A DNA stretch of 64,000 nucleotides, taken from IMG/VR virus record IMGVR_UViG_2703718787_000017; one strand, 5' to 3'. Position numbers: made by a program. Below are positions 33,001 to 39,000 of this stretch, piece by piece. The DNA is from a virus. Taxonomy: Duplodnaviria; Heunggongvirae; Uroviricota; Caudoviricetes. Each line of letters opens with the position of its first letter. Within the stretch, counting starts at the first letter, position 1.

Positions 33001-36000
33001 CCGTAGGTCGAGTGAGTACGGGATTTGTAATGGAAACCAAACAGTTGCAGTGGGAAGGTTCTACGTTCAGGGGAGTCCCAGCCTTCAAAGGTAGAGGCAT
33101 AAACTGGCAGTGGGCTTATCACTTCATCTTTTTCCAGTTCCCAGGTACGGGCAATTTCCGCCAGCTTGCTGGAATAAATTTCAATCTTACCGGAAGGTGT
33201 TTTAAGTGGATTTGCCTCGGGGTCGTCACGAAATGCTTTGTAGGCGACAAAATGACCATTGGGATCTTTACGCTTATAGATACCCATTTTTTTCAGTTCG
33301 TCGTAAGACGGTAACGCCGGATCTTTGGCAAGCATTTTGGCGTACAGATGTTGTAACCATTGTTCCTGCGTGCGACCTTCAGTGAACTTTTGATAGACGT
33401 CAGGTCCAAGACGTTTCGCGACTTCACTCAGGATCCAGTAAATCGGTTTGCGTTCGAATTTTTCGCTGGTGACAGGCTGGAGGAAAATGAGATATCCCAT
33501 GTTACCGGCGTAGTCGTTAGGAATAATATCTTCCTGCTCAACGGTCATCAGGTCTGGCAGCAGAATGTCGGCATATTTTGCCGATGAGGTCATAAAGTTT
33601 TCGATGACCACAATCATTTCGCATTTCGATTCGTCCTGCAGAATTTCATGCGTTTTGTTGATGTCAGAATGCTGATTAACGAGGGTATTTCCCGCGTAGT
33701 TCCAGATGAACTCCATTGTCAGACGGATGGATGGACTTGAAGTAGTTGACTCAATGCTACTTAAGGTCCTGATATGACTGACATTAACCATGATAATACT
33801 GTATGTCCATCCAGTTCTTTCTCTGGGTCTCCCTATCTGTATCAGCAAGTCTGCACCTCAAGTCCTGACACAAGGCTGACACAAATCAATATACTCAGCG
33901 TAGCTAAGCCTCAGTTAGTCCGTAGAGCCAATGGTCGATATACTATCCGCTTCAGACTCAAGGGACAGACCATCCCGTTTCTTTCAGTATCGACCCGAAG
34001 CACAGACAGGAGAGTAGCCACAATGCGTCAGAGAGAGCTTGCAGCCACAGCTAAGACATTCCTACTAGACAAGCCTGAAGTTTCGCTACAGGAGCTTACA
34101 GAGCACCTCCGGTCTATGGCTGAGCAGTTCCTGACAGACGCCAGTGATGACTACTGGAATGGACTTGAGGTCGCTACTCTGGTGGACGAGAAGTCCAACC
34201 TGAAGGAGCTAGCCGCTACGCAAGCCTTGAGTCTGGACCAGCAGAAGGGCATAAGGTTAGCGCTTGAAGTCCTGACCGCAGCACAGCAGAGGGTAGACAC
34301 TGGTGATGCCTCTGGTCTGATTAAGCTGATTGATGATAATAACCATACTGATTACTCAACTATAGGCGACTATACGTCCATTCTGAAGAATGAGCAGGGG
34401 GATAGACCAGCAGTTTTCACACAGGTTACTGCTCCTTGCAGTCACAGCGAGCGTCAGCCATCTGTGGTTTTTTCAAGCCTAGTGTCCTCGCTGCTGGCTG
34501 AGAAGGTCCAGACCCTGAAGTCCTCCAGCTACAAGGACCTGTCGTCCTCACTGAATACCGTCTCTCGGTTCTTACCTGAAGACATGGACCTGATGTCCCG
34601 CTCTGAGTGGCTGGCTGTCAGGGACTCTATGCTTGCTTCTGAGGTGAGACCATCGACAATCAACAAGCTGCTGACCAAAGCGAAGATGTGTCTCGATTAT
34701 GGCCTGATGAATGGGCAACTTGAGGGCCGCAACCCTATTGAACGGATGAAGCTGACCAAGGATATCGACTCCAAGCGCAGAGCGTTCACAGACGAGGAGC
34801 TGGATGGACTTCTTGTCCGGGTAGAGGCTGAGTATCAGTTCACACGACATACCGCTCACACGACCTCTGAGGCTCGCAGGTGGGCGACTCTGGTCTCTGT
34901 GGTCACTGGCGCTCGGTCTGCTGAGGTCTGCCACCTGACTAAACGTGACATTGTAACCTTGGACAATGGACTGGTCTGTATCGACATCAATGAAGATGGG
35001 GGCGGGAAGTCCGTAAAGAACAAGCATTCAGTCCGACTTGTACCGCTGACCGATGGCGCTTATGGGTTTGACCTGAAGTCCTTCCTCGAATGGGTAGACA
35101 TGCAGCCTGACGAGGGTCCTCTCTTCGGGATGACTCCAAGCGCATACTCTAGCTGGTTTAACTCAAGGGTCCTCACAGAGGCTCTCCCAGACGCTGAGAA
35201 CGTCTCTCTACACAGTCTGAGACATTGGCTGGCGACCCGGATGAAAGAGCGTGGAGTCAATCTGGTGGACGCTCAGGGCATCTTAGGTCACAGCAGTCAG
35301 TCCATTACGTATGACCTGTACGGGAAAGGACATGCAGTTGGTAGGCTGGCTGATGTGCTGAAGACAGCTTTACTTTAAGTAGGAAGACCCAAGGTGTAGA
35401 CCATATACGGCTTGATGGTTGAACCTTGGGTCGCTGAAGTCTGACTGAAGTTAGGGAGGGTGATAATAATCATAATCCCTCCTGACTATAGGCCCACTGG
35501 TTCGCCTTCGGCTGTCCGACTCTAAGTCTGTATGTGGTCTTATTTAAACTGGTTCCCTAACTCCAGTACTCCAAATTCCTATGGTCTCCTCTTGACATTC
35601 CTGTTTAACTGTGAGTCGCCTCTGGTCTCTCTTTATATATACTTCCTTAATTCCTGAGGCGTCTTTAGTCCTTGACATTCGGTCCAACCTGTGAGTCACA
35701 TCCGGTCCTCCCTCTATATATATACTTCCTTAATTCCTAGGGTCGCCTTAATCCTTGACATCCAGTCCAACCTGTGAGTCACATCCTGTCGCTAGCAAGC
35801 TAGCTGTCGCGCTACTGTATGCATCACCAGTGGTGGACTTGATTATCACTATAGGGGAACCAACTAATTCAACTACAGGAGATACTCTATGGCACGACCA
35901 ATCGCAACTCACGACAACACGTTCACCAAAGCCTACTTGCAGCAGCACTGCGGGGACCTGCTGTCATTCGATGGTCAGGGCGACCTGAGTGGTTGGCTGG

Positions 36001-39000
36001 ATGATGTCCTTACTGGTGCTGGTCGCCTGAACGAATCAATGGCAAGCAATACCAAGCCTGTCAGCCCATACTTGATTCTGACCCAACTACTAACGCACGA
36101 CACATTAACTGTAAGCGCTGTGCAGGAGTCCCTGAGCCGTAAGCGTGTCGCCTTGGGTGAACCTATGGTTTCAACTCGCTACGCTCGCTACGTCTATGCT
36201 ACCGTCGTCAGCGCCAGTAAATCCGTCCAGTACCACGCCAGTAAAGCTGGTTCATGATTACGGACCCTAAACTATCACTATAGGGAAGAGCAGCCTCCAC
36301 CTCTGGTCTTGATGCGTCAAGTTATGCGGAAGCTCTCCCGACATTAAGTATCTCTCCTAAGCAATCAAGGTCTGTGACCGCCTCTGTCATTCCTGCATCC
36401 CGTGAGTGTTCTTCTGTCGTCTCGGTTAGTAGCTCGTCTACTCACTACACTGACTTAAGTCTATCAGCACCTACCAGATGCACGCCTGACATGCGGTCCC
36501 GCCTTATATGCACATGGAGAACATGGTCCAAATGTAGCCTACGAAATTTTCGTAAGCTTCGGGCAGGACCAAGGCTGGTAGAAGTCTAACCAACCCAGAA
36601 AACGGGTTTGTTAAAAAGATTAACATGGGTCACTTAGGGCAGGACGCTTCTCTACCGTCCCGCCTTTATTGACACCTGCAGGAAATCATGGTCATCCCCG
36701 ACCAATCAAATCAACCCTATTCACTTTCGTAAGCACTTTCGGCGGCTCCATTTGGTAGCGCTGAATAGGTGTGGAGACCCGCAGGGGAACGAGAGTGCTT
36801 TCTAAAGGAGCTACCTTAATGAACATCCATAAATTCATCGACATGAACGAAGTCATCGCCAGCAATCATCCTCTTGCCAAAGGTACCACTGACAGCGTAA
36901 CGCAGGTCATCGTGTCACACCTGAAGTCCGGCGATGCAGGTATCGACATCCTGAATGCGCCTAAGGCCGCTAGCGATATGTCTGCCAGCTTCCTGAATGA
37001 CTTGAAGAGCAAGTATCGTGTCGTGGCTGGTCATAACTCTGAGGGTCACATTGATGCATGGCTGGCGCATAAGCACAGCGGACGCCGGGTGACGACTAAA
37101 AGCAATGACAAGGGTTATCGCGCTGTGAGCGTGAATGGTCGCCCGTATCAGGAGCACCGCCTTATCGTGGCCCTGTTCTATGATGTGGCACTGCCGGGCT
37201 GGGTGGTAGTTAATCACGCTGTGTCCTGCACCATTTGGAACGAAGGCAAATCAAACCATCCGTTCAACCTCCGATTAACGACATCATATGGTAACCAGCT
37301 TGATAAGAAGGTCCGCGAAGGTGTTCGCAATAAGTTCACCGGGTACTACTTCGATGAATATCGTGGCAAGTGGCGCGTCCAGATGAAGCGGCCTTTCGCT
37401 GGTGGTCCGCAGCATTTCGGCATGTACGACACCGAAGCTGAGGCCTACATTGTCCGCTGCGCTGTCCTCCACCAGCATCTTGGTGCGTTCTGGGCGATGA
37501 CCACCGGGGAATCCGGTCTCGTGCCCCGAGTCAAACCTGACGGTTCTCTGGTACTGCCTACTGAGCATGGTTACGATTGGGCGGAAAACCTGCCTTATCC
37601 TGAGGACTGGGACGACGAGTTCAAGGCCCGGCTGGAGGAGATGAAGCTGTACTGGGACGCATATCATGTGTTCGGTATTGAAGACGAAGAATACTTCGGC
37701 GACTGTGTGTCAGGGCTTGATGTGAACGCAGTAGTGTTCAACGGCGTGCCTGCCATTATCGACATCACAGAAGGACTTCCGGTGTCATATGCTCACTGGT
37801 TCGGACCAAGCCAACGCTTCGAGTTCACCAACTACTACCAGCGCTGCATTCACGCCTGTGACCTTGATGCGGAACCTGAAGAGGAAGACTGGATGGAGAA
37901 CGATTTCTGATGACAATTAAACAGCATATCGACCCTCGCACCGATATCGGCAGGGCAACACTTCGTTATCGTGGTCTGCCTACTCGTCATCTTCTGTCAA
38001 TGCTGGGGATGGGTACTGATTCATCCGAGCGCCCTTACTACAATCGAGACGAGCTGATAGCAATGCTGGTGGACCGTGATTTGAATAATCAGTTGCGTCG
38101 AGCCTTTGCTAAGCAGTCCTGACCATACCACCTTAATTTAAACACCTTTTGAGAATGACCGATGCGGGGAGACCGTAGGCATAACTGTGTCTGCGATACC
38201 GATAGTTCTCACCTTCTCAAGAGGAGTAATTACTATGTCTAGCAAAGCTAGTGCGTTATTCAACAACAACGACTGGAAACTGTCTGTCACCGACATCAAT
38301 CTCTATGAAAATACTGTGAATCTGGATGGGCAGTCCTACCCGTTGTCTCTGGCTATCAAGACCCTCATTCCGGGCTACCTGTCAGGCTTACCGTCCACCA
38401 GCAGCGCGGCGATGGAGCTGTTAGAGGCTCTGGCTGAAGCTGGTGTAGCTATTGGCAACTTCTTCAGTAATGACCTGATGACCGCCTATGGTCGCCGCCA
38501 GCAGAACAAGCGAGCTGAGGCTGAGCGTATCGCTAAAGAGCAGCGCATTCAGGCCGAGCGCATGCGTGAAGAGAACATGACTGATGCAGAGTGGCAGAAA
38601 GAGCTACAGCGCCGCGAACAGGTCAAAGCTGAACGCCGGACCTATGGTGAGAACCTCCGCAGTGCTACCCATTCCGCTGGTCGCTCCCGTGCCGCTATTG
38701 TCGCTGACATTGAGTCAGGCGGTAACTGGATGGACAGCCTCTAAGACAGACACACAAGTGGTCCTGACCTGATGTCGGGACCCACAGTATCTAAAACTAA
38801 TTTAGGAGATTGATTATTATGACCATGATTAAAGATAGCTATCAGTTCGGCATTGAGCCAGTACGTATCACCGACACCGACAACATTCAGGTAAACGAAG
38901 GTCTTCCGACTAACGCCGACCCTCAGGTCTATGCCTTCCAGTTAGCTAAGCTGGTGAAGACCATGCTCAATTCTGTACTTAAAGACGCTCAGGATAACAT

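Follow-up and report, generated by a model that had tools for sequence, protein, structure and literature searches.

A 6.6-kb capsid-encoding island in Escherichia coli ynfE with predicted Kayfunavirus-type promoters: a probable satellite of virulent T7-like phages

T7-like phages are the textbook example of autonomous, strictly virulent phages, and they are widely employed as therapeutic phages, K1F for instance against Escherichia coli with a K1 capsule. Phage satellites, capsid-forming phage-inducible chromosomal islands (cf-PICIs), PLEs (elements that resemble phage-inducible chromosomal islands), and PICMIs (minimalist islands of the phage-inducible chromosomal kind) are already known, whereas a satellite of T7-like phages is undescribed as far as the literature search made for this work reaches. 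That search, aimed at satellites of T7-like phages and of Kayfunavirus, found no description; its coverage was incomplete and an earlier description is possible. The subject of this report is a 6.6-kb island inserted in the E. coli gene ynfE, found in a 64,000-nucleotide (nt) stretch of DNA, called the window, from the IMG/VR record IMGVR_UViG_2703718787_000017. The island is probably a capsid-encoding satellite of virulent K1F-like phages and carries promoters suited to their single-subunit RNA polymerase. The analysis shows that the promoters match, how the island and the family around it are built, which fold the capsid protein has in its model, and that motifs at the island ends are shared in sequence with the phage; silence before infection, excision or replication on infection, terminase recognition, small capsids, and transfer are proposed.

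cf-PICIs are 10-15 kb in size, encode a portal, head-tail connectors, a protease, and a small terminase, take tails alone from temperate helpers, and are regulated in a host-type manner (AlpA and similar). P4 is an 11-kb satellite of a temperate helper; it has a P2-type cos, its Sid protein remodels the P2 capsid, and its own alpha protein serves its replication. Defence and satellite lifestyles can coexist in one element, as PLE and P4 illustrate. As for T7 itself, Chung and Hinkle are said to have found in 1990 that plasmids with a T7 origin and a concatemer junction are packaged by T7 as genome-length concatemers. PLE is reported to remodel the helper coat protein (PMC10002752). PICMIs are described as elements with no capsid gene whose concatemers are packaged into full-size capsids (PMC10803314).

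An earlier note, made from the sequence of the window alone, claimed two exact copies of a T7-class promoter core and took them to imply a cognate RNA polymerase from a distinct T7-family phage. The two copies are indeed present. The 13-mer TATCACTATAGGG was found at exactly two sites, 35844-35856 and 36273-36285, both on the + strand, and in none of 100 dinucleotide-preserving shuffles of the window (mean 0.00). A similar frequency in shuffled sequence, which the earlier note had named as grounds for giving up the claim, was thus not seen. Allowing up to two mismatches to TATCACTATAGGG still returned just the same two sites. The positions given before needed correction: ATTATCACTATAGGGGAA lies at 35842-35859 rather than 35843-35860, and ACTATCACTATAGGGAAG at 36271-36288 rather than 36273-36290. 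Could a T7-like 13-mer have arisen here by chance? The 9-mer core CACTATAGG with one mismatch occurred 7 times in the window against 8.1 expected, an absence of enrichment that speaks for chance. What carries the signal is therefore not the 9-mer but the two long copies, which are exact, intergenic, and on the same strand. A chance origin does not account for the exact 13-mer occurring twice against 0.00 expected in shuffles, for a 23-nt match to a phage consensus, or for the retention of the sites across the family members examined. It is hardly credible and is effectively excluded.

Scoring against known phage promoters points to the lineage of the polymerase. A weight matrix with a maximum of 38.7 bits was trained on seven promoters of Kayfunavirus IMM-002, collected by listing every NACTATAGG site in the phage genome; their consensus is cT(A/T)AACTATCACTATAGG(G/A)a. 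The downstream copy, called phi-2 (CCCTAAACTATCACTATAGGGAA, 36265-36287, +, with the +1 G at 36283), scored 34.2 bits, within the range of the strong IMM-002 promoters (33-37). It matches the phage consensus over 23 nt, and its 17-nt core TAAACTATCACTATAGG is identical in IMM-002 promoters. The upstream copy, called phi-1 (GACTTGATTATCACTATAGGGGA, 35836-35858, +, with the +1 G at 35854), scored 22.2 bits, within the range of the weaker IMM-002 promoters (20-28). The best site besides these two in the whole 64 kb reached 9.2 bits. The matrix scores allow the polymerase lineage to be named as that of K1F-like coliphages (Kayfunavirus, Autographiviridae: Studiervirinae), and the earlier suggestion of a distinct T7-family polymerase is supported by the score of phi-2. 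Judged over ~23 nt from -17 to +6, phi-1 and phi-2 are predicted to be T7-class promoters of the Kayfunavirus specificity group. The bases at -12 to -9, ACTA and ATTA in the island, differ as claimed from those of T7 (CGAC) and T3 (ACCC). The two copies share the exact 13-mer, but outside it they differ (34.2 versus 22.2 bits), which had gone unremarked: at -11, -13, and -14, phi-1 carries T, G, and T, respectively. On account of these differences the two promoters are not equivalent.

The setting of the two promoters is also phage-like. Both are intergenic, on the coding strand, and directly 5' of genes, and phi-2 precedes a five-gene block that ends with the capsid gene. Downstream of phi-1, a Shine-Dalgarno sequence (AGGAGA, 35878-35883) is followed by the ATG of orf122 at 35889, 35 nt past the +1 G, in line with the spacing first reported. 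The layout of promoter, Shine-Dalgarno sequence, and ATG, together with its orientation, is that of Kayfunavirus phages. A weaker third variant had been proposed at 35491-35502. The motif, TGACTATAGGCC, exists at 35483-35494 (+), 8 nt away, and is invariant across the family members examined; with less than 8 bits on the Kayfunavirus matrix it is not predicted to be a promoter. A further NACTATAGG site, ACTCAACTATAGGCGAC (34358-34366, +), lies within the integrase gene and is kept in most family members; the matrix gave no promoter prediction for it. A scan of the island for sigma-70 promoters found 6 against 6.0 expected, the level of chance, and the terminator scan run with it was also at the level of chance. 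The 18-mer around phi-1 was tried as a pointer to the helper and rejected: of seven IMG/VR loci, one is the island itself beside a prophage, and the remainder, being isolated single matches, say nothing about the helper.

The island has the structure of an integrative element. The window is E. coli chromosome, in which the late region of a prophage (1-25179) is followed by ynfH-G-F on the minus strand and then by a split ynfE, with a C-terminal fragment at 32682-33848 (-) and an N-terminal fragment at 40248-41705 (-). Between these fragments lies the island of 6,597 bp, bounded by the direct repeat AGTTCCAGATGAACT. The left attachment site, attL (33696-33712), is a copy G(T/A)AGTTCCAGATGAACT within ynfE, and attR, recognised from repeat analysis and family comparison, lies at 40293-40309. 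A repeat search returned the direct repeat pair 33698-33721 and 40295-40318; the att repeats are 15-17 bp long. A tyrosine integrase of 458 amino acids (aa), counted from the RefSeq-type start, is encoded at 34002-35378 (+) in a frame open from 33774; it matches PF00589 (1.1e-13) and the PHROG_1 integrase (1.3e-41), in agreement with the RefSeq annotation of a homologous island. It is followed, all on the + strand, by orf122, an HNH/AP2-like gene, orf70, and genes for 169-aa and 329-aa proteins, making ~7 open reading frames (ORFs), all intact. Judged by gene content, an integrase with att repeats and an incomplete set of virion and replication genes would qualify the island as a satellite. 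It is not a known phage, because megablast and blastn searches with the region as query returned, from 50,697 phage records, matches of 28-36 nt only. A short stretch beside the promoter motifs matched T7-like coliphages of the genus Kayfunavirus. ynfE has been listed among genes interrupted by integrative elements, with the element left uncharacterised (TIGER paper, PMC7192596).

The island belongs to a family. Of 5,426 complete E. coli genomes, 135 (~2.5%) have sequence related to its regulatory region, in every case on the chromosome. All members examined are located in ynfE, are flanked by the same att repeat, and have the same order of integrase, first gene, variable slot, ~165-aa protein, and ~329-aa protein. 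The variable slot holds HNH/AP2-like, KilA-N, or hypothetical genes; the architecture recurs in many strains with 82-98% identity and modular exchange of cargo. phi-2 is kept in every member examined and phi-1 in the members of orf122 type, and a subgroup (L009-L011), in which CTTAACTATCACCTTAGGAGAG and a different gene replace phi-1 and orf122, has a tandem promoter pair too. Although their cargo differs, eight members all fall between 6,496 and 6,794 bp, and a ninth is larger solely through two insertion sequence (IS) insertions. This near-constant length points to a packaging-size constraint. IS3, IS4, IS21, or IS903 insertions occur in several members (L011, H4-H6, H13) and bring them well past 6.8 kb; in L011 (NZ_CM129855) the segments 6137-7314 and 11459-12571 were noted for IS insertions, and the island measures 9.2 kb. 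If packaging constrains size, such inflated copies are probably immobilised.

One might also regard the island as the decayed remnant of an integrated T7-like prophage, in which promoters survive by chance and without function. Some T7-like phages do integrate, with examples from Pseudomonas putida and among cyanophages, and the island does carry phage-derived motifs. The gene content and the family do not fit this explanation: no remnants of polymerase, replication, portal, tail, or terminase genes were found in the island, every ORF is intact, the 6.5-6.8-kb architecture recurs across strains with exchange of cargo, and the capsid protein described below is unrelated in sequence to Kayfunavirus gp10. 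A prophage remnant is thus very improbable, and it too is effectively excluded.

Further evidence of a link to Kayfunavirus comes from the ends of the island. IMM-002 has a 189-bp terminal repeat whose right-hand copy starts at 39872. Just left of that copy the phage has a 29-nt element, ACGATGAGTTTTGGACCAAAAGTTcGAGA (39838-39866), and the island carries the same pre-repeat element with one mismatch, ACGATGAGTTTTGGACCAAAAGTTAGAGA, at 40071-40099 (+). The element recurs at 92-97% identity in 217 phage records of Kayfunavirus type; in one of them, K1F, it likewise abuts the repeat (39486-39523 of 39704). In the island it is followed by a stretch (TTCCCC...GAGTCCAGACCGAGGCC...GTCTAGAC, 40100-40206, +) that resembles how the terminal repeat starts, and these ~100 nt contain the repeat-start motifs TTCCCC(CC)ATAG..CTCAAGTCC..AAGGCC..GTCTA. 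For this stretch, identity to IMM-002 39838-39931 is 72%, and other members have TTCCCCCCATAG in it, as in T7-like terminal repeats. At the left end of the island, TCCCTATCTGTATCAG (33830-33845, +) mimics the right boundary of the terminal repeat when compared with IMM-002 181-200: the phage reads gagtctctATCTGTATCgac at the repeat end, and its repeat end with the boundary, tctctATCTGTATCgac, is matched by the island sequence. The boundary motif ATCTGTATC with its flank thus stands at the island end as it does at the phage repeat boundary. Its counterpart in T7 is ATCTGTT, the concatemer-junction pause site. A fourth feature is a stem-loop, GGAGGGTGATAATAATCATAATCCCTCC (35455-35482, +), which is identical at 28 of 28 positions to IMM-002 39437-39464 and near-invariant across the island family; the phage copy is flanked by the last promoter (39316) and gene 19.5.

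If the island ends were joined across att, by excision or in a tandem array, they would form a ~326-bp mimic of a concatemer junction, and the end motifs are thus a candidate packaging signal for the helper. At 40130-40173 (+) the island reads CCCCGGTG...CACCGGGG and then a run of 12 G, in place of the CCCCCCATAG...GGGGG of its relatives; this long homopolymer may be prone to slippage or may have arisen in assembly. A 7.8-kb record labelled 'Enterococcus phage IME_EF3, partial genome' (L024, PQ520054.1) contains the pre-repeat element and was considered as a packaged satellite. It was rejected: the record is 82-96% identical to IMM-002 over most of its length and spans the concatemer junction, and it appears to be a mislabelled or contaminating Kayfunavirus fragment.

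The last gene of the block, at 38819-39808 (+), encodes a 329-aa protein that had no match in Pfam, in PHROGs, in a PDB profile search, or by tblastn against phages. Its close homologues were found in Enterobacterales only, and an exhaustive profile search gathered 64 relatives down to ~20% identity. An AlphaFold2 model built from a 37-sequence alignment that drew on the distant relatives reached a predicted local distance difference test (pLDDT) score of 80.9 and a predicted TM-score (pTM) of 0.77; an earlier model from a shallow 15-sequence alignment (pLDDT 34.5) was not used. Foldseek found 232 matches in the PDB at E<=0.001. Among the best 50 of these, all 50 are HK97-fold capsids or encapsulins with probability 1.00, and they include the capsids of the T7-like phages Kp9, HRP29, and PhiM1. 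The TM-scores are modest (0.3-0.48), as is usual for the flexible HK97 fold. On these matches the protein is predicted to be a major capsid protein of HK97 fold, a fold defined by an N-arm, an E-loop, the spine helix of a P-domain, and an A-domain. Directly 5' of its gene, at 38235-38744 (+), lies the gene of the 169-aa protein, which is charged and rich in Ala, Glu, and Arg and is a candidate scaffold. The position of this gene is kept in all members examined, and the distant relative L022 has a DUF6971 protein there. The 169-aa protein itself had only sub-threshold Pfam matches (T7_gp14, 0.024; DUF6971, 0.15) and no match by tblastn against phages.

How would such an island live? In an uninfected cell, its late genes would be silent, as proposed from their having no recognisable sigma-70 promoters. 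Upon infection by a Kayfunavirus, the phage RNA polymerase would fire phi-1 and express orf122. Firing of phi-2 would produce a structured leader followed by the HNH/AP2-like gene, orf70, the scaffold-like protein, and the HK97-fold capsid protein, and the transcript would end at a UUCG hairpin. The island may be excised by its own integrase, amplified by the helper replisome, or both; promoter-primed replication is plausible, as in T7. The att-joined ends would present the junction mimic, consisting of the pre-repeat element, the repeat-start-like stretch, att, and the ATCTGTATC boundary, which the helper terminase would recognise and cut. Unit DNA of ~6.6 kb plus a repeat would then enter small capsids made of the island protein and fitted with the portal, core, and tail of the helper, and so be transferred to other cells. 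Genes in the variable slot may act against the helper. The earlier note had proposed that the promoter family would identify a probable helper lineage, and the match points to Kayfunavirus, with the integrase island, the capsid gene, the genome-end mimics, and the presence in many E. coli genomes in support of a helper.

The island could instead be packaged in normal helper capsids as a concatemer of about six units, with the HK97-fold protein serving interference or decoration. The arithmetic is suggestive, since six units of 6.50-6.79 kb make 39.0-40.8 kb, against 39.2-40.7 kb for Kayfunavirus genomes, and the reported packaging of T7 plasmids as genome-length concatemers would be a precedent, as would that of PICMIs. 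On the other hand, the capsid gene is conserved, has a scaffold-like partner, and is driven by the strongest promoter, for which a shell of the island's own is the simplest explanation, and site-specific cutting at every junction mimic would yield monomers. Hexameric concatemer packaging is accordingly less likely than packaging in small capsids of the island's own, and improbable in itself.

A different possibility is that the island is a phage-sensing defence island that aborts infection and is not packaged. In such a case the promoters would be a tripwire for the nuclease or KilA-N protein of the slot, and a decoy capsid protein would poison the assembly of the helper. The variable slot with nuclease-like or KilA-N genes resembles the defence hotspots of other satellites, host-type promoters in the island do not exceed chance, and no free copies were seen in the contigs examined, all of which would fit. 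However, PADLOC defence models matched none of the five proteins downstream of the integrase at E<=0.1. Furthermore, phage genome-end motifs at both island ends would be superfluous for pure defence, as would an integrase with intact att sites and a tight length of 6.5-6.8 kb. A pure defence island is therefore judged unlikely.

Several points weigh against a satellite of K1F-like phages that builds its own capsids. phi-1 is off-consensus at -11, where 7 of 7 IMM-002 matrix sites have C. The junction mimic, at ~326 bp, is longer than the 189-bp phage repeat and is phage-like at its two ends only. Among the genes of the island, none was identified as coding for an excisionase, a replication initiator, a portal, a terminase, or a tail protein, and Pfam and PHROG searches recognised no polymerase or protease gene there. 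In sequence, the capsid protein does not resemble its counterpart in the helper, Kayfunavirus gp10, and its fit to the helper portal and tail is therefore a supposition. The 169-aa protein is assigned as a putative scaffold from its position and composition only. Finally, free, circular, or virion-derived copies were not found; both small contigs with the capsid gene that were examined turned out to be chromosomal ynfE fragments.

The same design may extend beyond this island. Distant relatives of the capsid protein are encoded in similar integrase islands with other repeated T7/T3-class motifs (two copies each of TAAACCCCGACTATAGAGAG in L013 and of AATTAACACCCACTAATGGGAGACAC in L022), and from these motifs the design appears to reach beyond E. 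coli and Kayfunavirus. On balance, the evidence leans towards a broader view, in which these islands would be the first recognised satellite family of virulent T7-like phages (Autographiviridae), switched on directly by the helper RNA polymerase, replicated and cut by way of a junction mimic, and packaged as ~7-kb genomes into their own miniature HK97-fold capsids. Beyond E. coli, the sister lineages L013 and L022 would be tuned to other T7/T3-like phages; ynfE would be interrupted reversibly, and the accessory slot may restrict the helper.

Other features of the island bear on its expression and replication. Short repeats TGACACAAGGCTGACACAAA at 33866-33885 (+) form an exact 20-nt direct repeat with 40207-40226 at the right end, where a repeat search also found 2.8 tandem copies of TGACACAARGCC (40207-40239, +). 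The TGACACAAGGCTGACACAAA repeats could be arm sites of the integrase or analogues of the short repeats beside the terminal repeats of T7-like phages. The non-coding region between the integrase gene and orf122 is 510 nt long and holds the phage-identical stem-loop and, just 5' of phi-1, a run of three tandem ~83-bp repeats (CTTGACAT..CTGTGAGTCAC..TATATATA, 35591-35790, +), which were found in members of orf122 type and are missing from L009 and L010. These repeats contain TTGACAT and were considered as analogues of the T7 early promoters A1-A3, an analogy that was dropped because their -10 regions do not fit the sigma-70 consensus. They could be iterons, an origin, or sites for a protein of the island or the helper. 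orf122 itself (35889-36257, +) matches PHROG_23123, a family of unknown function (1.1e-8), and by tblastn shows weak matches to hypothetical proteins encoded by phages of Aeromonas and Salmonella.

The predicted transcript from phi-2 begins with an untranslated leader of 531 nt (36288-36818, +), in which no ORF was called. The leader RNA folds with -173 kcal/mol (z = -3.1) and is more stable than 100 of 100 shuffles; its first ~230-350 nt are kept in many members and the remainder varies with the cargo. An Rfam scan of the island, leader included, gave no match. The variable slot of this member is occupied by a putative HNH/AP2-like endonuclease of 363 aa (36819-37910, +), which matches the PHROG_99 HNH endonuclease (9.5e-17), shares 33-35% identity with the HNH endonucleases of phages in Drulisvirus, and has a RefSeq homologue annotated as 'AP2 domain-containing protein'. 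It is followed by orf70 (37910-38122, +), an ORF with a RefSeq homologue for which a family search gave no match. Beyond the capsid gene, the hairpin GGUCUGGAC-UUCG-GUCUGGACC followed by UUAUUA, read from the sequence at 39887-39914 (+), is kept with changes in the family alignment and is a candidate terminator for the phage polymerase. A hydrophobic ORF of 27 codons, MDLHKVYLIVFLLKLVLVVVLTVRVRL (39972-40055, +), with an AGGAGG ribosome-binding site, is kept in several members and occupies the same place as phage gene 19.5, just before the terminal repeat. Outside the island, the + strand late-gene block of the prophage closes, next to the ynf operon, with a 2,806-aa ORF (16759-25179, +) that combines 'large polyvalent protein' domains (LPD5, LPD1, MuF_C, and LPD38) with a match to DarB-like antirestriction; this prophage adjoins the island in relatives too.

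If the island is a satellite of K1F-like phages, an element present in ~2.5% of complete E. coli genomes exploits Kayfunavirus and probably interferes with it, and such interference would affect the outcomes of phage therapy and host-range data. Phage-polymerase promoters on bacterial chromosomes could then flag pairs of helper and satellite bioinformatically. With a ~6.6-kb genome that includes a capsid gene, the island would be among the smallest capsid-encoding satellites with double-stranded DNA. Nature would also have supplied, in this island, a minimal substrate for T7-type packaging, one that could serve studies of concatemer processing and the construction of transducing particles.

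How does the island compare with known systems? Its promoters differ in setting from those of Kayfunavirus, as they are chromosomal and the phage polymerase gene is not nearby. Like the cf-PICIs of Enterobacteria, the island is a small integrase element with an HK97-fold capsid protein of its own, and it would likewise depend on a helper for the remaining parts of the virion. It differs from them in its size of 6.6 kb, in its phage-polymerase promoters, and in its mimic of the concatemer junction of a virulent podovirus. Of the morphogenesis set of cf-PICIs, only the capsid and a scaffold-like protein were detected in the island. It is therefore not filed as a cf-PICI. PLE of Vibrio cholerae, whose helper is ICP1, and the PICMIs of Vibrionaceae resemble the proposed island in being chromosomal, in having virulent helpers, in staying silent until infection, and in using helper packaging signals. 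PICMIs, at ~6 kb, are also similarly small. The hosts and helpers of PLE and PICMIs are unrelated to those of the island, and promoters for a single-subunit polymerase, which the island appears to have, are unreported for either. In T7 plasmid transduction, T7-class promoters acting as origins are reported to suffice, together with a concatemer junction, for T7 to amplify and package foreign DNA, and the island carries natural equivalents of both. The transduced plasmids are laboratory constructs, whereas the island is integrative, of natural origin, and equipped with a capsid gene. P4-like satellites share with the island integration in E. coli and a variable accessory hotspot. No genes homologous to those of P4 or PLE were found in the island. 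Given that homologues of P4 and PLE genes were not found, that the cf-PICI set is missing, and that its promoters are of the single-subunit-polymerase type, the island is placed in none of these classes.

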